Virus record (IMG/VR): IMGVR_UViG_2908446538_000001
Location: 1 to 64,000 of that record
Reading direction: 5' to 3' (one strand)
DNA from: a virus
Taxonomy: Duplodnaviria; Caudoviricetes
DNA length: 64,000 nt
This document shows positions 47,550 through 62,445 of this stretch, piece after piece. Positions within the stretch are counted from its first letter, which is position 1, and each line of letters begins with the position of its first letter. The position numbers and the translations under genes were made by a program. The notes under the pieces are model-generated. The model saw nothing but the letters and a program-made list of their open reading frames with translations. It was not told where the DNA came from and did not search any database.

Positions 47550-50500
47550 ATGGGCGCAGCACAGAAGCTGGATATACACGGCGCCAAAGGTGGCGAGAGC
47601 AAGCCGAAGTCTCCGGTAGAGTCACCCGACAGCCTGCGCTCGACCAACGTGGCCAAAATCCTGATCGCCGTGGGCGAGGGTGAATTCGACGGAACACCCA
47701 CTGCGCGCGATATCTTCCTCGACAACACCCCAATCCAGGATGCCAGCGGCAACTACAACTTCACCAACGTGAAGTGGGACTGGCGTCCGGGTTCTGTCGA
47801 GCAGACCTACATCCCGGGTATACCATCGGTCGACAACGAGACCTCGCTGAATATAGAGCTGCGTAGCGGAACGCCGTGGGTTCAGTCGCTGACCAACCTG
47901 CAGCTGTCGGCGGCACGTATTCGCCTGGCTACGCCGCGGCTTGCGAGCCAGGACAACGAAGGCAATATTGGTGGTTACAGCATCCAGTACGCGGTCGACG
48001 TGGCCACCGATGGTGGGGCCTATCAGGAGGTATTGGTTGGCGCTATTACAGGCAAAGCCACCACTCGCTACGAAAAGTCCATGCGTATCGATTTGCCGCC
48101 GGCCACCAGTGGATGGCTGATTCGCGTTCGCCGCATTACCCCAAACCAGAACACCGACAAGATTGCAGATAGCCTGTTCATCGCCGGCTACACCCAGGTG
48201 ATCGATGCAAAGCTGCGCTACCCGAACACCGCGCTACTTTTTGTGCAATTCGACGCCGAGCAGTTCACCAAAATCCCGGCGGTCACCGTGAAGTGCAAGG
48301 CCCGCCGCTGGCAGGTGCCGAGCAACTACGACCCGGTGGCCCGCACGTACTCTGGCGCCTGGGATGGCACCATGAAGGAGGCGTGGACGAATAACCCCGC
48401 CTGGGTCACTTACGGTATCTGCACTCAGGACCGCTTCGGCCTTGGTAAGCGCATAAAACCGTGGATGGTCGACAAGTGGGAGCTGTACCGCATCGCGCAG
48501 TACTGCGACCAGTTGGTGTCGAACGGTGCCGACGGCGTTGAGCCGCGTTTCCTGTGCGACATGAACCTGCAGGGCAAAGCCGATGCATGGTCTCTGCTGC
48601 GTGATATCGCCGGCATTTATCGCGGCATGACGTACTGGGCTCAAGGTCAACTGGTCATGCAGGCAGATATGCCGCGCTCGCAAGATATCGACTACGTCTT
48701 TACCCGCTCCAATGTGATCGACGGGAAGATCTCGTACGGCAGCGCCTCGGCGAAAACGCGTTTCACTCGGTGCCTGGTCAGCTATGACAATCCGCTGAAC
48801 AACTACGACACCGACGTCACCGTCTATTCCGACCTGCCGCTGCAGCGCCGTTTGGGCGACAAGCCAACTGAAATCAGTGCCATCGGCTGCACTCGGGCAT
48901 CTGAGGCCCAGCGCCGCGCTAAATGGCTGGTGCTGAGCAACAACCAGGACCGCACCATCAGCTTCAGGACCGGTATGGAAGGCCGTATCCCGCTGCCAGG
49001 GTTCATCATCCCCGTTGCCGACTCGTTGCTGGCTGGTCGGGAGATCGGCGGGCGCATTGCGGCGGCGTCAGGGAAGGTCATTACCCTGGACCGTGACACC
49101 CTGGCCAAGGCGGGTGACCGGTTGGTGGTCAACCTTCCCGGCGGGCGGGCAGAAGGCCGCACCGTGGAAAGCGTGAGCGATCGCAACGTAACCGTGACCA
49201 TTGCTTACAGCGAGGCACCAGCTGCACAGCTTCAGTGGGCAATCGACGCTGACGACCTGGCAATCCCTCTATATAGAGTGATGAGGACTGCACGGACGCC
49301 AGGGGGCGATTACGAAATCAGCGCCTTGCAGTACGAGCCAAGCAAGTTCGCCAGCATCGACACTGGCGCACGCCTCGAAGACCGCCCGATCAGCGTCATA
49401 CCAATCACGGTGGTGCCGCCGCCGGAAAGCGTAACCGTCACGTCGAACGTGTCGATCGACCAGGGCCTGGCCATCAGCACCATGAACATCTCGTGGCCAG
49501 CCGTCACCGGCGCGGTCGCCTACGACGTGGAGTGGCGCAAGGACAGCGGCAACTGGATCAAGGTGCAACGCACCGGCTCCACCAGCCTTGATGTCACCGG
49601 GATTTACGCGGGCGCCTATCTGGCCCGCGTGCGCTCGGTGAGCGCCTTCGAAATCTCGTCGATCTGGAAGAGCTCAAACCTGACCAACTTGGAAGGCAAG
49701 GTTGGCCTGCCGCCGGCGGTGTCTTCCCTGACCACAACCAGCGAATTGTTTGGGGTCGGCATCAAGTGGGGCTTCCCACCTGGTGCAGAGGACACCCAGC
49801 GAACCGAGGTGTGGTATGGGCCTGCAAACGATCTGGGAGCCGCTACCAAGCTGGCCGACCTGGCTTACCCGCAGGCTGAATACCGCATGCAGCAGCTGCA
49901 GGCGGGCGCAACCCTGTTCTTCTGGGCGCGCTTGGTGGACCGTACCGGCAACGTCGGGCCGTTCTATCCGGTTGTCGACGGGGTTATGGGGCAGGCCAGC
50001 TCTGAGGCTGGGCCAATCCTCGATCTGCTCGCCGGCAAGGTCACGAAAACTGAGCTGGGCAAGGATCTTCTGGATGAGCTTGAAGGCCTGCAGGACCAGA
50101 TCGACTCGCTTGATGGTTTGAAGGGCTACGATCCAGAAGCCACCTACCTGAAAGGCCAGATGGTGGTGGAGGGTGGGCGAATCTATCAGGCCTTCGTAGA
50201 TGTTCCGGTAGGCACACCACCGCCGAACGGCGCTTTCTGGCTGGATGTTGGCCAGTCTGTCGAGACTGCGAACGGCCTGGCCCAGCAAGTGGCAACCAAC
50301 AAAGCGGACATCACGGAGCTCGACGGCGTCGTCACGGCCCAGGCCAGCATGACCAACGCATTGCGCGCCTCGGCGCGCGATGACAGTGGCAGCGGTGCGA
50401 AGGCTGATGCACTGAGAGGATACGCCAGCACTGTCGCTATCGTCGAAGAGAGCAAGGTCAGGGCTACCGCCATCGAGGCCGAAGCGACCAAGACAACGAA

Positions 50501-51008
50501 GCTTGAAGCGACTGTTGGACAGAACACTTCTGCCATTCAGCAAACGTCCTCAGCGTTGGCCAACACCAATGGCCGGCTGCAGACATTGTGGTCAGTGAAG
50601 ATGGAGACCACCGCCGGTGGACAGAGGTACGCGGCCTCGTTCGGTCTCGGTCTTCAGGTCGATCCATCTGGTGTGTCGTCACAGTTCGTGGTCAGGGCTG
50701 ACACGTTCATGCTGTTGAACTTGAATAACGGCACGCCGGTGTCACCGTTCTCTGTGTCTGGCGGGCAAACCTTTGTCAGTTCGGCGTTTATTCAGGATGG
50801 CACCATCACCAACGCTAAGATCGGCGAATACATCAGCTCGACCAACTACATCGCTGGCCAGCAGGGCTGGATTCTCCGGAAGGATGGATCGTTCGAAATC
50901 AACGGGATTGTTCCTGGTCAAGGGCGCTCCATGATGACGAATCGCTCTATGCGGTTTTGGGATAACAATAACATGAAGAGAGTGCAGCTAGGAGATCAAA
51001 CCGAATGA
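47550..51008 (+). CDS. Central tail tip / host-specificity protein J
   Basis: 1152 aa; FN3-like and DUF1983-like C-terminal segments. Confidence 0.93.
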   Translation: MGAAQKLDIHGAKGGESKPKSPVESPDSLRSTNVAKILIAVGEGEFDGTPTARDIFLDNTPIQDASGNYNFTNVKWDWRPGSVEQTYIPGIPSVDNETSLNIELRSGTPWVQSLTNLQLSAARIRLATPRLASQDNEGNIGGYSIQYAVDVATDGGAYQEVLVGAITGKATTRYEKSMRIDLPPATSGWLIRVRRITPNQNTDKIADSLFIAGYTQVIDAKLRYPNTALLFVQFDAEQFTKIPAVTVKCKARRWQVPSNYDPVARTYSGAWDGTMKEAWTNNPAWVTYGICTQDRFGLGKRIKPWMVDKWELYRIAQYCDQLVSNGADGVEPRFLCDMNLQGKADAWSLLRDIAGIYRGMTYWAQGQLVMQADMPRSQDIDYVFTRSNVIDGKISYGSASAKTRFTRCLVSYDNPLNNYDTDVTVYSDLPLQRRLGDKPTEISAIGCTRASEAQRRAKWLVLSNNQDRTISFRTGMEGRIPLPGFIIPVADSLLAGREIGGRIAAASGKVITLDRDTLAKAGDRLVVNLPGGRAEGRTVESVSDRNVTVTIAYSEAPAAQLQWAIDADDLAIPLYRVMRTARTPGGDYEISALQYEPSKFASIDTGARLEDRPISVIPITVVPPPESVTVTSNVSIDQGLAISTMNISWPAVTGAVAYDVEWRKDSGNWIKVQRTGSTSLDVTGIYAGAYLARVRSVSAFEISSIWKSSNLTNLEGKVGLPPAVSSLTTTSELFGVGIKWGFPPGAEDTQRTEVWYGPANDLGAATKLADLAYPQAEYRMQQLQAGATLFFWARLVDRTGNVGPFYPVVDGVMGQASSEAGPILDLLAGKVTKTELGKDLLDELEGLQDQIDSLDGLKGYDPEATYLKGQMVVEGGRIYQAFVDVPVGTPPPNGAFWLDVGQSVETANGLAQQVATNKADITELDGVVTAQASMTNALRASARDDSGSGAKADALRGYASTVAIVEESKVRATAIEAEATKTTKLEATVGQNTSAIQQTSSALANTNGRLQTLWSVKMETTAGGQRYAASFGLGLQVDPSGVSSQFVVRADTFMLLNLNNGTPVSPFSVSGGQTFVSSAFIQDGTITNAKIGEYISSTNYIAGQQGWILRKDGSFEINGIVPGQGRSMMTNRSMRFWDNNNMKRVQLGDQTE

Positions 51009-53225: not shown

Positions 53226-53651
53226 ATGCCTATCACCGAAACCCGTGGGGTGCGCAATAAGAACCCCGGCAACATCGACTACAGCCCGGCCAACCAGTGG
53301 CAAGGCCAGCTCAAGCCCGACCCGTCCATCGAGAAGCGCTTCGCCAGGTTTGACACCGCCGAGAACGGTATCCGCGCCCTGGGCAAGGTGCTGCTGACGT
53401 ACCAGCGCAAGCATGGCTTGAAGACCGTGGAGGCCATCATTGGCCGCTGGGCGCCGAGCGGGGAGAATGATACGGCCGCTTACGTCGGTGCCGTCGAAGC
53501 GAACACCGGTACCCGGCCAGGTGCCGAAGTCGACCTGACGCGGCCGGCGGTGATGACCGGTTTCGTCAAGGCGATCATCCATCACGAAAACGCGGGGTAT
53601 GCCTACCCTGATGCTGTGCTGGCTGAAGGCGTGCGGCGGGCGCTGGCATGA
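53226..53651 (+). CDS. Endolysin / lysozyme-like protein
   Basis: RGVRNKNPGNI, FDTAENGIRA, RWAP..ENDT.AY, AII.HEN; precedes spanins. Confidence 0.8.
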   Translation: MPITETRGVRNKNPGNIDYSPANQWQGQLKPDPSIEKRFARFDTAENGIRALGKVLLTYQRKHGLKTVEAIIGRWAPSGENDTAAYVGAVEANTGTRPGAEVDLTRPAVMTGFVKAIIHHENAGYAYPDAVLAEGVRRALA

Positions 53652-54178
53652 TGCCTGCGCAGAAACTGGTCGGGCTGGCTGTGTTGGTTATGGTGCTGAT
53701 GGCCGGTGCCTGCGGCGTGACCTGGCAGGTTCAGGACTGGCGCCTGGGGAAGAAGCTCGCCGAGCAGCTCACGGAGCAGGGCATTGCGCACCAGAAAGAT
53801 CTGGACGCAATCACCGGCGAGGCCTGGCGTCAGCAGGCCGCCGAGCAAGACAAGCGGCTGGCCACTGAGCAGCAGCTCGCCACCGTGGACCAACAACACA
53901 CCAAGGAATTATCCGATGCCCAGCGCAATCAGGCTCTGCTGCGTGATCACCTTGCTACTACTGAACTGCGGCTGTCAGTCCTTATCGACGCCACGGATTC
54001 AGCCAGTGGCTGCGACGTGCCTGCCGCCCCCGGCGCCGCAGGCGTGGTTCATGCAGCCCGTCGAGCCCAACTTGACCCAGCGCATGCTCAAAGAATTATC
54101 GCCATCACCGACGATGGGGATAACGCCGTGATCGCGCTGCGTGCGTGCCAGGCGTACGTCAGGGCTGTGGCTCGGTGA
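53648..54178 (+). CDS. Rz: i-spanin
   Basis: N-terminal TM, coiled coil, ALRACQAYV end. Confidence 0.88.
   Translation: MMPAQKLVGLAVLVMVLMAGACGVTWQVQDWRLGKKLAEQLTEQGIAHQKDLDAITGEAWRQQAAEQDKRLATEQQLATVDQQHTKELSDAQRNQALLRDHLATTELRLSVLIDATDSASGCDVPAAPGAAGVVHAARRAQLDPAHAQRIIAITDDGDNAVIALRACQAYVRAVAR
53916..54131 (+). CDS. Rz1: o-spanin embedded in Rz
   Basis: AAGGA RBS, hydrophobic signal ending ..NCGC, Pro-rich, alternative frame inside Rz. Confidence 0.8.
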   Translation: MPSAIRLCCVITLLLLNCGCQSLSTPRIQPVAATCLPPPAPQAWFMQPVEPNLTQRMLKELSPSPTMGITP

Positions 54179-54677: not shown

Positions 54678-54788
54678 TTAGACATAGGAACCGCGAAAGC
54701 CACGCTCTACATGGCTTTCGCATCGATCAAGCCCATACTGCTGCATCATTGGCGTGTGGGAAGACAGATCGGACGTGTTTTTACTCAT
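54678..54788 (-). pseudogene. mutS: 5' fragment of mutS (18 codons) fused to 18 phage-derived codons
   Basis: MSKNTSDLSSHTPMMQQY is the Pseudomonas MutS N-terminus; the expected W-x-x-K continuation is replaced by GLDRCES...*. Confidence 0.85.
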
Positions 54789-55112
54789 TGGATAGTAGGC
54801 AAATTCGTTGAAAGTGATGGGGCAAAGGGGGCGCTTGGTCCAGTGTCGATCAGTTGCGCAGCGCAGGTTTCCAAACGACGCAGGCCGATGTGGGAGCTGT
54901 CGAGCCCTAGCGAGGCTGCGAAGGGATCGCCGCGCTGTACCGGCAGGCCGCAGCCCCTGCATCGCTGAAGTTCGAAAGCTCAACATCGTGCCCAATCGTG
55001 GTCGCTTAACTGATCGGCATCGGGCGCTTGGCCCAGCATTTTTGCGATGGGCGCAAGGTTAACACGCGAAGTCGGGGCTTCGCAGGTCGCAAACGGTTAG
55101 GTAAAACACAAA

Positions 55113-55149
55113 AAAGGGCGGTGCATTTAACTAAATGCGCCGCCCCTTT
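55113..55149 (-). terminator. Long hairpin terminator
   Basis: AAAGGGCGGTGCATTT / AAATGCGCCGCCCCTTT, U-tract on minus strand. Confidence 0.65.
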
Positions 55150-55163
55150 CTTTCTTCCGGCTG

Positions 55164-55439
55164 TTACTGAAGGTTACCGGGCGAATCCAACACCTTCACC
55201 ACATCATCCACCACCGCCTTCACCATCTCCTGCAAGTAATGCGACGCCCAGGCGTAACGGTCCGTCTCCTTGGTCATCGCCGCATCTTCTGCGAGCTGCT
55301 TGGCAACGTGGAGGAGGTCGGAGGCGTGGTGCAAGGCTTCGTGCAGGGAAACACCGCTGTTGACGCGGAATAGAGGTTGGTCGGAGTGGAAGGAGAAGGG
55401 GGTGACGCCGAGGGTGGTTAGATCTTGCGCAGCGTTCAT
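55164..55439 (-). CDS. DUF3077-like small protein
   Basis: LFRVNSGVSLHEALHHASDLL; GGAGG RBS. Confidence 0.75.
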   Translation of the reverse strand: MNAAQDLTTLGVTPFSFHSDQPLFRVNSGVSLHEALHHASDLLHVAKQLAEDAAMTKETDRYAWASHYLQEMVKAVVDDVVKVLDSPGNLQ

Positions 55440-55565
55440 AAAACACCTCCGAGCGCGGAGGAAATGAACCGGGAAGGATGACGCCGTTTGGTGCGGTAAC
55501 TGTAGAAGCACATAAGTGAAAATTCCTTGATTTGAGGAACTGCCACGAACCTTCTCACAGGTTTG

Positions 55566-55647
55566 GGTGGCAGCTGTGCGCAGGGTGAGAAACCGGCAAT
55601 CAAGGCAACCGGTAGACCCGAAGGTCTCCCACGCACAGCCGCCATAA
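55566..55647 (-). ncRNA. C4-type antisense RNA (three-stem junction)
   Basis: GGCGGCTGTGCG/CGCACAGCTGCC closing stem, AGACC-TTCG-GGTCT hairpin, CCGG/CCGG stem; GGTTTCTCAC complementary to upstream GTGAGAACC. Confidence 0.65.
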
Positions 55648-55713
55648 AACGATATCGCAGACGAAAAAAAACGCCGCGATAGGGTTCTTGGGCGCTTTGC
55701 GCCTTGATTTGCT

Positions 55714-55752
55714 CGGGTTCTCACACCCGGTCGCTGAATTTGCAGCGACCGG
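55714..55752 (-). promoter_or_regulatory. C4 target (a1/b1-like) tandem hairpins
   Basis: GTCGCTG-CAAATT-CAGCGAC then CGGGTGTGAGAACCCG. Confidence 0.55.
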
Positions 55753-56080
55753 GGGAGGTTAGCGTGATGGTGGGGTGGGTGCAACTGGGAAACGGCGGAC
55801 GTCTTTACTTTGCCAGTTGTCAGCGAACCCATGCAGGAGGATATGCCTAGGAAATGATCACCTAAAGATGTCAGCCCCCTGGCTAGTGGCTTAAAGGTGA
55901 AGGCAGCTTTCGGCCCAGAAGCAGAAGTTTGCGAGTGGCGGCTGAGGGCTGACCACCGCCTGTCAATACAACAGAAATAGGCCCGGAGCTGGCGTCTAAT
56001 GTCCAGATGGTAGAGAGTGATCTCTAGCGGCGGAAACGTAGTGGCACACTAGTCTAATAGCTGTATTGACGTGAGGGGAC

Positions 56081-57802
56081 ATGGACGTGGCACCGACATC
56101 TACAGAGTTAGTTAAGTTGTACGAGTGCGGAGAATTCGCCAGCCAAATGGCCCACCGGTTCGGATTGGGGAGAAGTGCAGAAACTCATTTGGTCGAGGAA
56201 CTGTGCATAACACTGCACAACTCAGGAGCTATTGACCTATTAGCCCTTGTTGAAGATCGCACCCTGCAGGAGCTTCCAGGAACCGAGTTCTTTATGGCGT
56301 CATATTTTTTTTGCCGTCTTTTGCCGGAGTTAGACGCGACCCCTGAGCGAATGATGCGCTGCGTTGATGGATTGGTAACTCGCGGAGGAAATGACGGTGC
56401 AGCCAATGAACCCAATGCAGCATTCCGCAAATGGTGCGCGAGCGTTCCTCTGCGTGCTCTTGAAGTTATCGCCGCAGCGCACGAAGGTAATGAGCTCGCC
56501 ATCCAACATCTCGCCTTCGCATTAGAGGCTATCAGTAACCTCAGCGAAGCGCGTCGAATGGCAATTGAATATGAGGACATTCGTCGCCAAGCCGCCATCT
56601 CTGCCCTAGGACGTATCGATCACAAAGGTTCAGAGGAGTGTGGCGAGACGTTTGCAGTTTTCCATTCACTACTTGATGGCAGCATTGGCGATGCTACAAG
56701 AGCAAGTGTGCTGCATGCGTCGATGGAAATTCTGAATCGCGGCCAAGATGTTTCGTCTGCTGATGCGAACTCGCTAATAAGTCGGATAGTGAGCGAGCCC
56801 GGTCAGTTCACTATACATCAGTGTGCACGTGCACTCTGGTCGTGCCGACAAGCACTTACTCAAGATATCGTTTCTTTCTTGCTGGGTGCATTGGAGCACT
56901 TGGACTCGGCAAATAAAGGAACGATTGAGGAGGTAGATCTAGGCCTTCATGTGCTATTGGAACTCGGGTTTGATGAATCGGCCGTTTCTTTCGTAACTAT
57001 GCTTCTCTCACGTCCAGATAATGAACTAGAACTTGAGGCTTTTGATAGCTTTACTCACAATCTGCTATCCGGCTCTCCGGGTCTTATTAGCCGAGTCGTG
57101 GTGAAGTGGCTTCAGCTGGGCTCGCCACAACTGTGTAACGGACTTGCCAAGGCTATAAAGGGCCCCGGACTGGATGGTGTGCCACTGAGCCTTCAGGCTG
57201 ATGACCTAGCTCTCCCTCCCTCCACACAATTGTTTATCTGTCGAAAAGCATTGGGTTGGTTCTTCTTTAAACCGACTACGGGAGCATCCGTCCTAGTCTC
57301 TGTATTGCGAATTTGCGATTCAGACACAGCTCAAGAGGTACAAAACCTGTTGGTTAATCCATTGCTTCAAAACTATGGAGGTGTGCGGGAATATCTGGAA
57401 AACCTTGCTACGGAGGATGCAGCGACCAAAGCTGTTTCTGGGGCTCTTGCTCAAAATTTGGCTTATCTCGATGCAAAGCGTTCAGTTCCACTTCTTGTTG
57501 AGCTGCAACCAACCGAGCACCATCGCCGTATTGAGCGCTTGCGTATATCAGATCAGATGAGGGAAGCGTATAAAGGGGCGGAGAGTGATTCTGTATTCTT
57601 GGGACTGGTGAGCCGCTCCGTGCTGCTCTATGGCAATCGCTCACTTAGTTTTATCGACGATGGCCAAGACGGGCTTCGCCACGTGGAGGTCGATCTTCAG
57701 TCCCATGGTATTTCCTACGAGATGCCGCGAATGGAGGTCGTTGATCCCATTGGCCTTGACTACATCCTCCGCGTCTTCCGCAATGAGAGGATGGAAAAAT
57801 GA
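56081..57802 (+). CDS. Alpha-helical (HEAT/ARM-like) 573-aa protein, candidate defence gene A
   Basis: GAGGGG RBS; Leu/Ala-rich helical pattern; no catalytic motif recognised. Confidence 0.75.
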   Translation: MDVAPTSTELVKLYECGEFASQMAHRFGLGRSAETHLVEELCITLHNSGAIDLLALVEDRTLQELPGTEFFMASYFFCRLLPELDATPERMMRCVDGLVTRGGNDGAANEPNAAFRKWCASVPLRALEVIAAAHEGNELAIQHLAFALEAISNLSEARRMAIEYEDIRRQAAISALGRIDHKGSEECGETFAVFHSLLDGSIGDATRASVLHASMEILNRGQDVSSADANSLISRIVSEPGQFTIHQCARALWSCRQALTQDIVSFLLGALEHLDSANKGTIEEVDLGLHVLLELGFDESAVSFVTMLLSRPDNELELEAFDSFTHNLLSGSPGLISRVVVKWLQLGSPQLCNGLAKAIKGPGLDGVPLSLQADDLALPPSTQLFICRKALGWFFFKPTTGASVLVSVLRICDSDTAQEVQNLLVNPLLQNYGGVREYLENLATEDAATKAVSGALAQNLAYLDAKRSVPLLVELQPTEHHRRIERLRISDQMREAYKGAESDSVFLGLVSRSVLLYGNRSLSFIDDGQDGLRHVEVDLQSHGISYEMPRMEVVDPIGLDYILRVFRNERMEK

Positions 57803-59517
57803 AGCTAATGATTCGGGACTATTTGGCTTCTCTGAAGGAAAGGGATGAGCTGGATGCGGTGTTACCAGACTTATTGAGTGAATTAGGTTTTAACGTCTAT
57901 TCACGTCCTCAAAGAGGAACAAGCCAACTTGGTGTCGATATTGCGGCCATTGGAAAGGACGATGATGGTGAGAAGAAGCTCTTTCTGTTTTCCGTCAAAC
58001 AGGGTGACCTGACCCGTCAAGACTGGGACGGCAATCCGCAGGCTCTACGATCATCATTAGATGAGATCTTAGATGCGTACATCCCCCACAGAGTTCCGAC
58101 TAGATACAAAGATCTGAAGATTGTTATCTGTCTCGCTTTTGGAGGTGATGTAAACGAGCAAGTACGAGAGAAGTTAACAGGATTTATCGACAAAAACACT
58201 TCGACGAAAATTGCTTTTGATGAATGGAATGGCGATAAGATTGCAGGAATGATTTTAAGAGGAATTCTCAGGGAGGAAATCCTTCCAAAGCCATTGCGTA
58301 GCAGCTTTCAGAAAGCTGTCGCTATGGTCGATGAATCAGACGTCTCTTATGAGCACTTTAGTCGCCTTGCTGGAAACCTATGTAAGGCTGGCATGGTGTC
58401 GGGAAAATCCCGTATACGCTCTGCCCGACAGTTAAATATCTGTCTGTGGATCCTGTTTGTTTGGGCCCGTAGTGCAGGCAACATCGAGTCGCCATATCGT
58501 GCAAGCGAGCTTGCACTTTTGACGACCTGGGAATTGCTCCGGCCTACCCTTGGTAGCAATGGGCGGGAGTTGAAAGCACTCAGCATCGTTGTTCGTCAGT
58601 TGATCGAGCTACATCTTACTATTTCTATGGAGTTCATCGAGCAACGTGTGTTGCCGTATGCCGAGATCCCCCATGGGATATCAATGGCCACTGGGTCCAG
58701 AAGTTCGTTGGATGTGAACTTAGCGCTATTTGAAGTACTGGCTCGCATTGGCTTGGCAGGGCTATGGCTCTACTGGCTAGGAGAGCGGGGCGATGAGGCA
58801 TACAAAGATCAGATAAGCCACCGCGTCGCACAACTCACTCATACGGGACTAGAGCTAATTAAAAATAACCCCATACTATTTCTGCCGATAACAGATCCGC
58901 AAGGAACCAGTATTGCCCTTTTCCTTCAGCTTTGGCTGGTTAGTGGGCTTGATGCGACGGGAGTAACTTCTTGGCTTCAGGAAATGGCAAAACGCCTAAC
59001 GTTCACCATTCACACAAGGGGTCGTTATACCACCTCTCTCTCAGACTACCGTGATCTTGCTGACCACCCTCGTGATAGATCCGACAACTATTTCAAAGAG
59101 GCGACGGCGGGCAGCACAGTCGTTCCCCTGATCGCCGTTTGGCTGCATGCCCTTGGTGCAACAGAGGCCGTCGAGGCTCTAAGCCGTCTTGCACGGAAAG
59201 AGTTAAAACACTGTACGTTACAACTTTGGTTGCCTGATGCCTCGTCGGAAGAGAAATTCTATGTAGGTGACAACTCTCATGGACGAGCAATTTGTGGATT
59301 GCCTTTGGATAAAGGGGGACAGAAGTTACTCGCAACTATCGCAGAGGCATGCAGTATGAATGCAGACTTGCAGAATTTATCGCCTGTCAAATCAGGCTTC
59401 TGGCCGGTCGTAATGGTCGCCTGCCACCATTATGATTTGCCGGTCCCTCCTGGGTTCTGGATCAATTCATTATTGGATCCAGAGTCGAAACCAGAACTGG
59501 AGGCCGATCAAATTTGA
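57799..59517 (+). CDS. N-terminal PD-(D/E)xK (Mrr/REase-like) nuclease + helical domain, candidate defence gene B
   Basis: LLSELGF...QLGVDIAAIG...LFSVKQG; ATGA overlap with gene A. Confidence 0.7.
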   Translation: MKLMIRDYLASLKERDELDAVLPDLLSELGFNVYSRPQRGTSQLGVDIAAIGKDDDGEKKLFLFSVKQGDLTRQDWDGNPQALRSSLDEILDAYIPHRVPTRYKDLKIVICLAFGGDVNEQVREKLTGFIDKNTSTKIAFDEWNGDKIAGMILRGILREEILPKPLRSSFQKAVAMVDESDVSYEHFSRLAGNLCKAGMVSGKSRIRSARQLNICLWILFVWARSAGNIESPYRASELALLTTWELLRPTLGSNGRELKALSIVVRQLIELHLTISMEFIEQRVLPYAEIPHGISMATGSRSSLDVNLALFEVLARIGLAGLWLYWLGERGDEAYKDQISHRVAQLTHTGLELIKNNPILFLPITDPQGTSIALFLQLWLVSGLDATGVTSWLQEMAKRLTFTIHTRGRYTTSLSDYRDLADHPRDRSDNYFKEATAGSTVVPLIAVWLHALGATEAVEALSRLARKELKHCTLQLWLPDASSEEKFYVGDNSHGRAICGLPLDKGGQKLLATIAEACSMNADLQNLSPVKSGFWPVVMVACHHYDLPVPPGFWINSLLDPESKPELEADQI

Positions 59518-59660
59518 TTTCGATTGGTCTTGAATTCAGTTTTCGGCCAACACTGTGGTTTGTCCGCTCCTGGCCGATTTCTGCCTGATATGATTGACCG
59601 ACATCGACCCACTCAGGCCAGTCGTGACAGGTAGATCCCTGCCATGAAAGTGCGAACTGT

Positions 59661-60032
59661 ATGGCACCCAAATGTGTGGAGAAAATCGCTGTGCGAGTAA
59701 GGAATGAGCAAAGCATTTGTGAATGGCAGGGGGTTACCCCTGATCGACCACAATCTGGGTCAAAAATCGGCATAGCGTTGGGGACTCTGGGGCTTCAGCC
59801 CATAAATGGGTTAAGGGTTAATCCGGATAACGGTACGAACGGTTGGTACCTGTGGTGCGGTATGGAGTGGTCTGAGGCTGACGATTTTTTTTCACCCCTG
59901 CATGTGGACCACATCACTGACTATCTACCGGAAGTTGTCGGATATCTTGATTTGCCGCCAGGCTATCGTTTTTACATCGACGGCAATAATTTTGAAGACG
60001 TTTGGCTTGACCCAGAGTTGGTACGCACTTGA
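59661..60032 (+). CDS. Imm33-like immunity protein (orphan)
   Basis: PINGLR.NP..GTNGWYLWCG, FFSPLHV.H, YLDLPPGYRF. Confidence 0.65.
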   Translation: MAPKCVEKIAVRVRNEQSICEWQGVTPDRPQSGSKIGIALGTLGLQPINGLRVNPDNGTNGWYLWCGMEWSEADDFFSPLHVDHITDYLPEVVGYLDLPPGYRFYIDGNNFEDVWLDPELVRT

Positions 60033-60169
60033 CTCGTCCGGTGAATTGACCTGAGTTTTCATAGACACATTGAATGAGTACTTCTGGTCGATAGCAGCCT
60101 CTCAGATTTTGAAATTGACGAGTGCCCAGGCCCCCATAGCTTACTGACGCGTTGGTTAACGGTTTCTAA

Positions 60170-60190
60170 ATTTGCATAAATTATGCAAAT
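60170..60190. promoter_or_regulatory. Perfect palindrome upstream of prtR (probable operator)
   Basis: ATTTGCATAA-A-TTATGCAAAT. Confidence 0.65.
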
Positions 60191-60232
60191 TAGCATTTGC
60201 CAACCCCAAAATCCCCCGTCATCATCCCCCTT

Positions 60233-60967
60233 ATGCAAAAACGCAACGTTTCAACCGTCTTAAGAGAACTCCTAGACCGCGACCGGATCTCCCCCACGGA
60301 GCTTCACCGGCGTACTGGCGTGCCTCAATCCACACTCTCGCGAATCCTCAGCGGCAAGATCGTTGATCCGTCGGACAAGCATATCTCGCGCATCGCCGAG
60401 TACTTCCGTGTCAGCACCGACCACTTGCGCGGGCGCGCGGCGGTGGGGGCTTTGCGGGATGACGGGCGTGACCCGATGCATTCGGAACTCAAGGACATAA
60501 GCCTGTGGGACGACGACACGCCCGTTAATGATGACGAGGTGTCGATCCCCTTTCTGCGTGAGGTTGAATTGGCTGCTGGATCAGGAAGATTCGTCATCGA
60601 GGAAAGCGAGAAGGCCAGCTTGCGTTTCGGCAAGCGCAGCCTGCGGCATAACGGTGTGCAGTTTGACCAGGCCAAGTGTGTAACGGTGCGCGGCAACAGT
60701 ATGTTGCCGGTGCTGCGCGACGGCGCGACGGTCGGGGTGAACGCAGGCAAGAGTGGCATTGGCGATATCGTCGATGGCGACTTGTATGCCATCAACCACA
60801 ATGGCCAGCTGCGGGTGAAACAGCTCTACCGCCTGCCTTCGGGGATTCGCCTGCGCAGTTTCAATCGCGATGAACACCCGGATGAGGACTACAGCTTCCA
60901 GGATATCCAGGATGAGCAGATCAGCATCCTCGGTCATGTGTTCTGGTGGGGCATGTACGCCCGTTAA
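60233..60967 (+). CDS. prtR: PrtR-like tailocin repressor (HTH + S24)
   Basis: HTH ISPTELHRRTGVPQSTLSRIL; AAG, GNSM, VK; heads tailocin cluster next to mutS. Confidence 0.88.
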   Translation: MQKRNVSTVLRELLDRDRISPTELHRRTGVPQSTLSRILSGKIVDPSDKHISRIAEYFRVSTDHLRGRAAVGALRDDGRDPMHSELKDISLWDDDTPVNDDEVSIPFLREVELAAGSGRFVIEESEKASLRFGKRSLRHNGVQFDQAKCVTVRGNSMLPVLRDGATVGVNAGKSGIGDIVDGDLYAINHNGQLRVKQLYRLPSGIRLRSFNRDEHPDEDYSFQDIQDEQISILGHVFWWGMYAR

Positions 60968-60983
60968 CCTCCTTACGTAAGAC

Positions 60984-61011
60984 AAAGCCCGCCAGTGCGC
61001 GGGCTTTTTTT
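60984..61011 (+). terminator. Intrinsic terminator after prtR
   Basis: AAAGCCCGC...GCGGGCTTTTTTT. Confidence 0.8.
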
Positions 61012-61098
61012 CGCCTGTAGAAAACCACCAAACCCTTAACCCACAAGGCCTGAAATGCACTCGTGCATTTCGATAGTGAAAATAAATGCATTTGCGCA

Positions 61099-61127
61099 TT
61101 GACTGTATATGCATACATGCATATTCT
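61099..61127 (+). promoter_or_regulatory. Tailocin promoter with overlapping SOS-like box and ATGCAT repeats
   Basis: TTGACT-N17-TATTCT; CTGTATATGCATACAT (one mismatch to LexA box). Confidence 0.6.
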
Positions 61128-61164
61128 TCATCTCAAGCCAGCCAACAAGGCCTGGTGGAGGCGG

Positions 61165-61260
61165 CAAGGATGCTGCCAAGGAAGACAAGGAAGGCACGCA
61201 ACATCGGCAAGGACGCCATCGAAGCGATGGCAGGGAAGCCAGGCAACACCGGCAAGGATG
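61165..61260 (+). repeat. Six CANGGANG (CsrA/RsmA-type) motifs in tailocin leader
   Basis: At 61165, 61177, 61186, 61208, 61231, 61253; four sit in short hairpin loops. Confidence 0.7.
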
Positions 61261-61470
61261 CCGACGCTCTTTAGTTGTACCGCTTCAAGAAAACAGGCAG
61301 CGATGAACCGGCCTTAACGGTTCAGAGGGTTGGCAACTGACCCGGGTGTGCAGCGTAAAGCACCAGAAGCAGTTATCCGGCAGACAGGGATCGTGGTCGG
61401 AAAAACATCTTAGGAAAGAACCGTACCGCGCCAGTAGCGCCGAACGTTCGAATCTGGACCGCATTACTGA

Positions 61471-61494
61471 AAAGCCCGGGCCACCGGGCTTTTT
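61471..61494 (+). terminator. Leader terminator before holin
   Basis: AAAGCCCGG-GCCA-CCGGGCTTTT; boxA-like CGCTCTTTA at 61265. Confidence 0.7.
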
Positions 61495-61567
61495 GGAATG
61501 CCTACCCATAAATGGATTTACCCAAACACCGGCCCGTTGCCGGTAGTGCTCAGCCAGGAGGCGTGAC

Positions 61568-61906
61568 ATGACAAACGAGCAGCAAGCGTTAGCGGAAATG
61601 CCTATCTGGCTGGTGATCGTACTGGCGCTGATCGGCGGTGTATCCGGTGAAATGTGGCGCGCCGACAAGGAGGGCGCCCGTGGTTGGTCGCTGATTCGGC
61701 GCCTGGCCCTGCGGTCCGGGGCGTGCATGGTGTGTGGGGTTTCTGCCCTGATGCTGTGCTACGCCGCCGGTATGTCGATCTGGACGGCCGGCGCCATTGG
61801 TTGCCTGACCGCCATGGCCGGCGCCGACGTGGCCATCGGCCTCTATGAACGCTGGGCCGCCAAGCGTATCGGCGTTAACCAAGGCTCCGGCCAGGACCCG
61901 CAATAA
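61568..61906 (+). CDS. Tailocin holin
   Basis: Three hydrophobic segments; first gene of cluster. Confidence 0.88.
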   Translation: MTNEQQALAEMPIWLVIVLALIGGVSGEMWRADKEGARGWSLIRRLALRSGACMVCGVSALMLCYAAGMSIWTAGAIGCLTAMAGADVAIGLYERWAAKRIGVNQGSGQDPQ

Positions 61907-61929
61907 CCGTTGCAAGGACGCTGATCAAA

Positions 61930-62445
61930 ATGGACCTTATCGAAAAACCCTCCCAATTGCCCCAATCCATCGGCGACGCACTGCGCGCCGCCTTCCCGGA
62001 CTTGAAGGTCGGTAATCATCAGGACTTTCAAGGCACCGGGGATAAAACCGGCGTGCTGATCACGGTCGAGGGCAACGGCCCGGGCATTCGCTCCCGTGAG
62101 GGCCGTAAAGCTCACGCCTTGTCGATTTCGCTCAAGGCCATGGTCGCGCCGGGTGCATTGCCGTTCGATGCCTGCGATTTGGCCAGCCAACTAATGGACC
62201 TGGTGCTGGATAACCGCTGGAACCTGCCACGGGCTCAGTGTGATTTGCCGACCACTATCGTTGCGGCTCCCTCACTGCATGCCACCGCAGAAACGGACTA
62301 CGACACCTGGACCGTTTCCTTCACGCAAACCCTCTATCTCGGACCGGTGCTGCTCAACGATCCCACGGGCCAACCGCTGTTTGCCCGCACCTGGGAAGTC
62401 TCGAACATCAACGACCCCGATCAATACAAACCACTGGCGGAGTAG
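61930..62445 (+). CDS. Tailocin collar/terminator-position protein
   Basis: Position between holin and spike, as in R-type pyocin clusters. Confidence 0.7.
   Translation: MDLIEKPSQLPQSIGDALRAAFPDLKVGNHQDFQGTGDKTGVLITVEGNGPGIRSREGRKAHALSISLKAMVAPGALPFDACDLASQLMDLVLDNRWNLPRAQCDLPTTIVAAPSLHATAETDYDTWTVSFTQTLYLGPVLLNDPTGQPLFARTWEVSNINDPDQYKPLAE

Follow-up and report, generated by a model that had tools for sequence, protein, structure and literature searches.

Identification of the operon

Which system is encoded by the two adjacent genes at positions 56,081–59,517 of the viral record IMGVR_UViG_2908446538_000001 (IMG/VR; Duplodnaviria, Caudoviricetes), and has it been described before? The window, by which we mean the whole stretch of DNA analysed (64,000 nucleotides, positions 1 to 64,000 of that record, equivalent to G000:C1:1549424-1613423), had already been the subject of a sequence-only reading, which saw in the pair a helical scaffold or sensor and a PD-(D/E)xK nuclease with an anti-phage function and could match it to no named system. 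Both proteins match PADLOC profiles of the Olokun system nearly end to end: the first matches OloA (PDLC03925; E 3.6e-97, 325 bits, residues 10–572 on profile positions 14–595 of 596) and the second OloB (PDLC03926; E 3.9e-197, 655 bits, residues 1–557 on profile positions 1–553 of 556). Olokun is an already described and catalogued two-gene system, named in 2022, which PMC10121019 lists among those of Millman et al. 2022; the text of the Millman preprint lacks the name. The present pair is another copy of it, and the central claim, that no named system fits, therefore fails, this match to a described system being the very check that the reading had named. The functional interpretation given there agrees with the known system and with such aspects as our analyses could test. 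We conclude with high confidence that oloA and oloB, in this order, make up an intact Olokun operon for defence against phage, with direct cleavage of phage DNA as its most likely mechanism. What we observe here is family membership, operon architecture, a nuclease fold, intact catalytic residues and a patchy, mobile distribution.

The two open reading frames were found at exactly the coordinates given earlier and encode proteins of 573 and 572 amino acids (Table 1). They are adjacent, co-directional and arranged as one operon with a 4-bp ATGA overlap (AAAATGAAG), in which the oloB ATG lies over the oloA TGA, and a purine-rich GAGAGGA run resembling a Shine–Dalgarno sequence lies just 5' of the oloB start. 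The pair is AT-richer than most of its surroundings, as had been noted, with a GC content of 0.46–0.52 over 56000–60000 compared to 0.53–0.64 downstream and 0.53–0.63 in the 4 kb upstream. The motifs quoted in the earlier reading are likewise present (LLSELGF, GVDIAA and FSVKQG in OloB, SYEMPRMEVVDPIGLDY in OloA), and the 5.1-kb block that contains the pair carries no methyltransferase, conserved P-loop or transposase, as that reading had stated. Gene order, sizes and overlap are the same as in Olokun, as are the near full-length profile matches, the PD-(D/E)xK head in OloB, the HEAT/adaptin-like OloA and the lack of an NTPase in either protein. There is thus no difference of substance from Olokun, only a new chromosomal position, the spacer between mutS and prtR. 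The closest named homologues are an OloB of P. fluorescens (93% identity) and an OloA of P. farris (85%). General family databases are less informative, with nothing in Pfam for OloB, nothing in NCBIfam for either protein and only a weak, sub-threshold HEAT_2 match in Pfam for OloA.

As a further copy of a known system the locus itself adds little; of more use to research on Olokun are three features of OloB set out below, namely the invariant E14, D47 and K67, the family-wide lack of the canonical middle acid and a nuclease head resembling those of FokI and BspD6I.

The nuclease head of OloB

OloB was modelled with AlphaFold2 from an alignment of 102 full-length homologues (26–83% identity), giving a mean predicted local distance difference test score (pLDDT) of 95.1 and a predicted template modelling score of 0.90; without the alignment, from the single sequence, the pLDDT was 39. 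Residues 1–156 form an alpha-beta-beta-beta-alpha-beta domain in the model. A VIA-align structure search with residues 1–160 found the cleavage domain of FokI (2fok_A; Z 10.7, root-mean-square deviation 3.4, 141 residues aligned), the small subunit of R.BspD6I (2p14_A, Z 9.8), AF1548 (1y88_A, Z 9.6, aligned range 13–267), N.BspD6I (2ewf_A, Z 8.9), an XisH-like protein (2okf_B, Z 8.4) and MspJI (4f0p_A, Z 8.1, aligned range 1–267). Foldseek matched the MspJI catalytic domain at a probability of 0.99–1.00, and when the whole model was searched MspJI alone stood out among matches otherwise dominated by designed helical repeats. At the sequence level there is nothing comparable: none of 50 OloB homologues matched a Pfam nuclease family, Mrr_cat included, and a sequence search of the Protein Data Bank (PDB) with OloB returned no similar entry. 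The family itself is extensive: at E values up to 1e-3 its members fall into 799 clusters of 50% identity.

Six residues are invariant in the 102 homologues (E14, G45, D47, K67, W76 and G495) and three more (E17, D19 and Q43) almost so. At position 65, where a (D/E)xK motif would have its acid, 95 of the 102 have S, T or V and none has an acidic residue, and because of this the active site appears, from the alignment, to be an E...D...xK variant without the canonical middle acid, which is probably replaced by the glutamate on helix 1, E14. The present OloB keeps every invariant residue, among them the putative catalytic E14, D47 and K67, and therefore looks functional as judged by its sequence.

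The head shares the fold of the Type IIS catalytic domains of FokI and R.BspD6I/N.BspD6I (Z 8.9–10.7), in which two heads are needed for a double-strand cut. This property fits the 2:2 model of PfOlokun as well as its reported nicking of plasmid DNA. OloB differs from these enzymes in that it has no sequence similarity to them, no DNA-recognition domain and no methyltransferase, and in that position 65 is never acidic while E14 on helix 1 is invariant. With the Mrr/MspJI-type (Type IV) endonuclease domains it has in common the D...(Q/S)xK layout and, as noted, the Foldseek match to MspJI. However it lacks a Pfam Mrr_cat match in the homologues searched, has no SRA-like or other reader of modified bases, and requires OloA as a partner.

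The helical domain of OloB

The remaining ~410 residues of OloB are modelled as stacked helices, have only generic helical-repeat structure matches and are less conserved in sequence than the nuclease head. This domain is possibly the part that binds OloA or acts in sensing. We considered and set aside a LanC-like reading, which we keep as a lead only: the similarity to LanC-type alpha/alpha-toroids (nisin cyclase, GCR2, CuvL) is weak, and the reading was dropped because Z values of 8.2–9.6 are below a meaningful level for helical folds and the candidate His and Cys positions, H494 and C542, show less than 75% conservation. A Walker A-like string, AGMVSGKS at residues 197–204, was also rejected: it falls where two helices join, and homologues do not conserve its G and S.

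One homologue of 793 amino acids (P0257) has a ~225-residue N-terminal extension, with OloB residues 13–555 aligned to its residues 226–774, and is a possible fused form of OloB. In public records OloB homologues are often labelled 'chemotaxis protein' (P0007, P0013, P0015, P0017, P0021, P0036 and the plasmid match H2). This label has no support in sequence or fold and is probably a propagated misannotation, and is of some consequence for genome annotation as the mislabelling is widespread.

The partner protein OloA

OloA is a HEAT/adaptin-like alpha-solenoid. Besides the HEAT_2 similarity already mentioned, a profile of 48 homologues had a sole and weak match in the PDB, to the AP-3 adaptor chain 7p3x_B (E 0.029), and the structural neighbours of OloA in the ESM Atlas are HEAT/ARM proteins and AP-2 alpha adaptin (TM-score 0.50 over 426 residues). 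Its best-conserved stretches are residues ~91–150 and ~391–450 together with the C-terminal segment that the earlier reading had singled out (~470–573). OloA diverges faster than OloB (e.g. 69% identity where OloB has 81%).

We found no Walker A motif in OloA. In nuclease–NTPase systems of the Gabija and Hachiman type the nuclease has an NTPase partner with Walker A/B motifs, whereas the pair described here has no partner with such conserved motifs and, in the strict sense, does not belong with them; the list of P-loop partners in bioRxiv 10.1101/2025.07.10.664194 likewise leaves Olokun out.

Distribution and mobility

In a sample of 300 genomes from other species of the genus, 10 had an OloB homologue, at 27–82% identity. 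Linkage to OloA is close: in all eight other loci of the genus with OloB of at least 40% identity, OloB begins at the end of an OloA homologue; where OloB identity falls to ~25%, the OloA C-terminal segment can still be recognised upstream in two of four loci; and the 4-bp overlap recurs in three close homologue loci. The flanks of these loci are unrelated to one another, placing the operon in different islands. One copy adjoins a DDE transposase near rpoD, the 93%-identical OloB of P. fluorescens shares its island with a tyrosine integrase and a resolvase, and a P. chlororaphis copy has HNH and MazG-like neighbours close to a type VI secretion system effector locus. Among plasmid records, 35 have an OloB homologue; a search of 50,697 phage records found none. 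Such patchy, mobile spread is the pattern expected of a defence cassette.

Mechanism and alternative explanations

The biochemistry of Olokun comes from PfOlokun, a homologue of Pseudomonas type, as reported in bioRxiv 10.1101/2025.07.10.664194, which describes OloA as 'adaptin-like' and OloB as a PD-(D/E)XK nuclease. PfOlokun is reported there to form a 2:2 OloA–OloB complex of ~278 kDa by mass photometry and AlphaFold3, with two nuclease heads side by side, to degrade T7, SECphi17 and SPO1 DNA and to nick plasmid, while leaving E. coli genomic DNA uncut; activity was seen at high protein concentration only, and mutations of the nuclease site led to loss of the OloAB complex. All operons of the preprint's test panel, Olokun included, reportedly defended against at least one phage. 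The 2:2 complex and the selective degradation of phage DNA make direct, dimerisation-dependent cleavage by OloB the most likely mechanism. By analogy with these homologues in the literature, the present operon may be expected to share the stoichiometry of the complex, the DNA cleavage and the phage protection: an OloA2:OloB2 complex would cleave invading phage DNA with paired FokI-like heads in a dimerisation-dependent manner, and OloA would act as a scaffold or sensor that gates the nuclease.

Several points weigh against this interpretation. At a few conserved positions outside the catalytic site the OloB encoded here differs from the consensus of the family (R171Q, P180S, G315A, P411T, R543H and R546D), and a simple scan found no sigma-70-like promoter upstream of oloAB and no terminator for the operon. 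According to the preprint, the specificity of PfOlokun in vitro matched its protection in vivo only partly, and the part of OloB bound by OloA is an 'N-terminal helical domain'; our model has the nuclease at the N-terminus and the helices at the C-terminus.

We also put forward a more specific proposal, which we regard as rather doubtful: that Olokun is a nuclease gated by dimerisation in the manner of FokI, its non-canonical E...D...xK site using a helix-1 acid, in which OloA holds or releases two OloB heads on a phage cue, the less conserved helical domain of OloB serves as a variable sensor, and expression of this particular copy is linked to DNA damage. The last element is suggested by the location of oloAB, with the orphaned mutS promoter on one side and prtR on the other (see below).

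It could alternatively be held that OloB is a solitary restriction enzyme of the Type IIS or Type IV kind which acts with a helper on modified or specific DNA, leaving no distinct Olokun mechanism. The best matches of its head are indeed the cleavage domains of FokI, BspD6I and the modification-dependent MspJI, PfOlokun distinguished phage from E. coli DNA in the reported assays, and neither Pfam nor PADLOC found a methyltransferase in the 5.1-kb block. The last result also separates the locus from restriction–modification systems, where a cognate methyltransferase stands beside the nuclease; the neighbours of oloAB are instead a DUF3077 gene and an Imm33-like gene, for which PADLOC gave no meaningful match. 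However, no DNA-recognition or modification-reading domain is recognisable by Pfam or NCBIfam, the HEAT-like partner is obligate and the two family profiles matched belong to Olokun. We therefore consider a separate restriction enzyme very improbable, and view the idea more as a mechanistic nuance within Olokun than as another identity. A toxin–antitoxin-like addiction module, in which OloB is the toxin and OloA its neutraliser and which stabilises its island without defending against phage, would account for the close coupling of the two genes, for their occurrence on mobile islands and plasmids and for the tight interdependence implied by loss of the PfOlokun complex on mutation of the nuclease site. 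Yet both proteins, at ~570 amino acids, are far above typical toxin–antitoxin sizes, the panel operons, Olokun among them, each gave phage protection, and the preprint reports that the broadly cutting systems (a statement not made expressly for Olokun) are not toxic when overexpressed, so that this explanation is even less credible than the last.

Least probable of all, to the point of being negligible, is that the pair is cargo of the adjacent prophage or tailocin, with for example a superinfection-exclusion or accessory function. It draws on position, as oloAB lies only 1.3 kb past the lysis/attR end of a prophage and 0.7 kb before prtR, but is already contradicted by the comparative data: the operon is outside the prophage boundary (~54735), relatives with the same prtR and tailocin lack Olokun, as does one (G002) with an apparent prophage at the same mutS site, and the homologues occur in unrelated islands and, as given above, in no phage record.

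Genomic position of the operon

A lambda-like prophage of ~57 kb, whose late region is found upstream of oloAB, has integrated within the first few codons of mutS. The native mutS 5' stub is left with the promoter side at attR, while the intact mutS (864 amino acids) has a phage-supplied start (MTDLSSHTPMMQQYW...) and lies ~2 kb before the start of the window (L036, G000:C1:1547000-1549500), adjoining a 329-amino-acid prophage tyrosine integrase; its reading frame is preserved and its upstream region replaced. The earlier placement of the pair between mutS and the tailocin is thus correct for the ancestral locus but has to be qualified, as the prophage separates the intact mutS from the stub, which is all that is left of mutS on the operon's side. 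Downstream, the Imm33-like gene lies between oloB and prtR within the inserted block and is an orphan with no adjoining toxin gene.

Table 1. Features of the oloAB locus and its surroundings (window coordinates)
Feature	Position	Strand	Details and basis
J-type central fibre	47550-51008		Prophage late region
Endolysin	53226-53651		Prophage late region
Rz spanin	53648-54178		Prophage late region
mutS 5' stub	54735-54788	-	18 codons (MSKNTSDLSSHTPMMQQY, then unrelated sequence); native stub with promoter side at attR; prophage integration recorded at 54681-54788
5.1-kb block with C4 RNA and DUF3077 gene, oloAB and Imm33-like gene	55095..60172	.	Absent from the mutS-prtR spacer of relatives
Short DUF3077 gene	55164-55440	-	Real start probably ATG at 55440
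C4 antisense RNA RF01695 (82.8 bits), a1/b1 target RF03163 (63 bits), isrK RF01394 (50.5 bits)	55563-55762	-	Rfam
oloA	56081..57802	+	573 amino acids, all-helical HEAT/adaptin-like Olokun partner; PADLOC, Pfam, Atlas neighbours
oloB	57799..59517	+	572 amino acids, Olokun nuclease subunit; PADLOC, AlphaFold2 model
OloB N-terminal PD-(D/E)xK nuclease domain	57799..58266	+	Residues 1-156, putative catalytic E14, D47, K67; structure matches, conservation
OloB C-terminal all-helical domain	58267..59514	+	Residues 157-572, stacked helices in model
Imm33-like immunity-domain gene	59661-60032	+	Pfam PF24719, E 2e-37
PrtR-like S24 repressor	60197-60967		Followed by tailocin genes downstream

The mutS-prtR spacer in relatives

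Comparison with relatives shows the 5.1-kb block as an insertion. In one relative (G005, L020) the sequences matching 55022–55094 and 60173–61962 of the window lie 46 bp apart, and in another (G002, L019) those matching 55140 and 60173 are ~520 bp apart; we found no direct repeats flanking the block. The spacer was surveyed in the 14 relatives in which both mutS and prtR could be placed, and measures 172–194 bp in nine of these while the other five carry cargo: an 8.5-kb segment with a peptide ABC (ATP-binding cassette) transporter and alpha/beta hydrolases (G012; L028, G012:C1:1351300-1360200), an IS3-family element (G015; L029, G015:C1:5097500-5101300), inserts of ~1.9 kb (G011) and ~0.8 kb (G008), and in G002, where mutS and prtR are ~41 kb apart and a mutS 5' stub adjoins prtR, what we read as a prophage inserted at the same place in mutS.

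The mutS-prtR spacer is therefore a variable slot, and the mutS-cinA/recA region has been described as a hotspot for tailocins and prophages (PMC7815802). The suggestion of an integration hotspot holds to this extent, with cargo in five of 14 relatives, but not as a hotspot specific to defence, which is unsupported: neither of the two annotated cargos (ABC transporter with hydrolases, IS3) is defensive.

Some smaller features of the spacer can be recorded. The stretch 54829–55036 contains ~180 bp that are extra compared to relatives, bounded by a 15-nt direct repeat (GGGCGCTTGGTCCAG / GGGCGCTTGGCCCAG), and a strong hairpin with a 13-bp stem and a T-rich tail is found at 55116–55145. The three Rfam matches, all above the gathering score, lie upstream of the DUF3077 gene, and the unit of C4 RNA and DUF3077 gene is present in multiple copies in this genome and its relatives.

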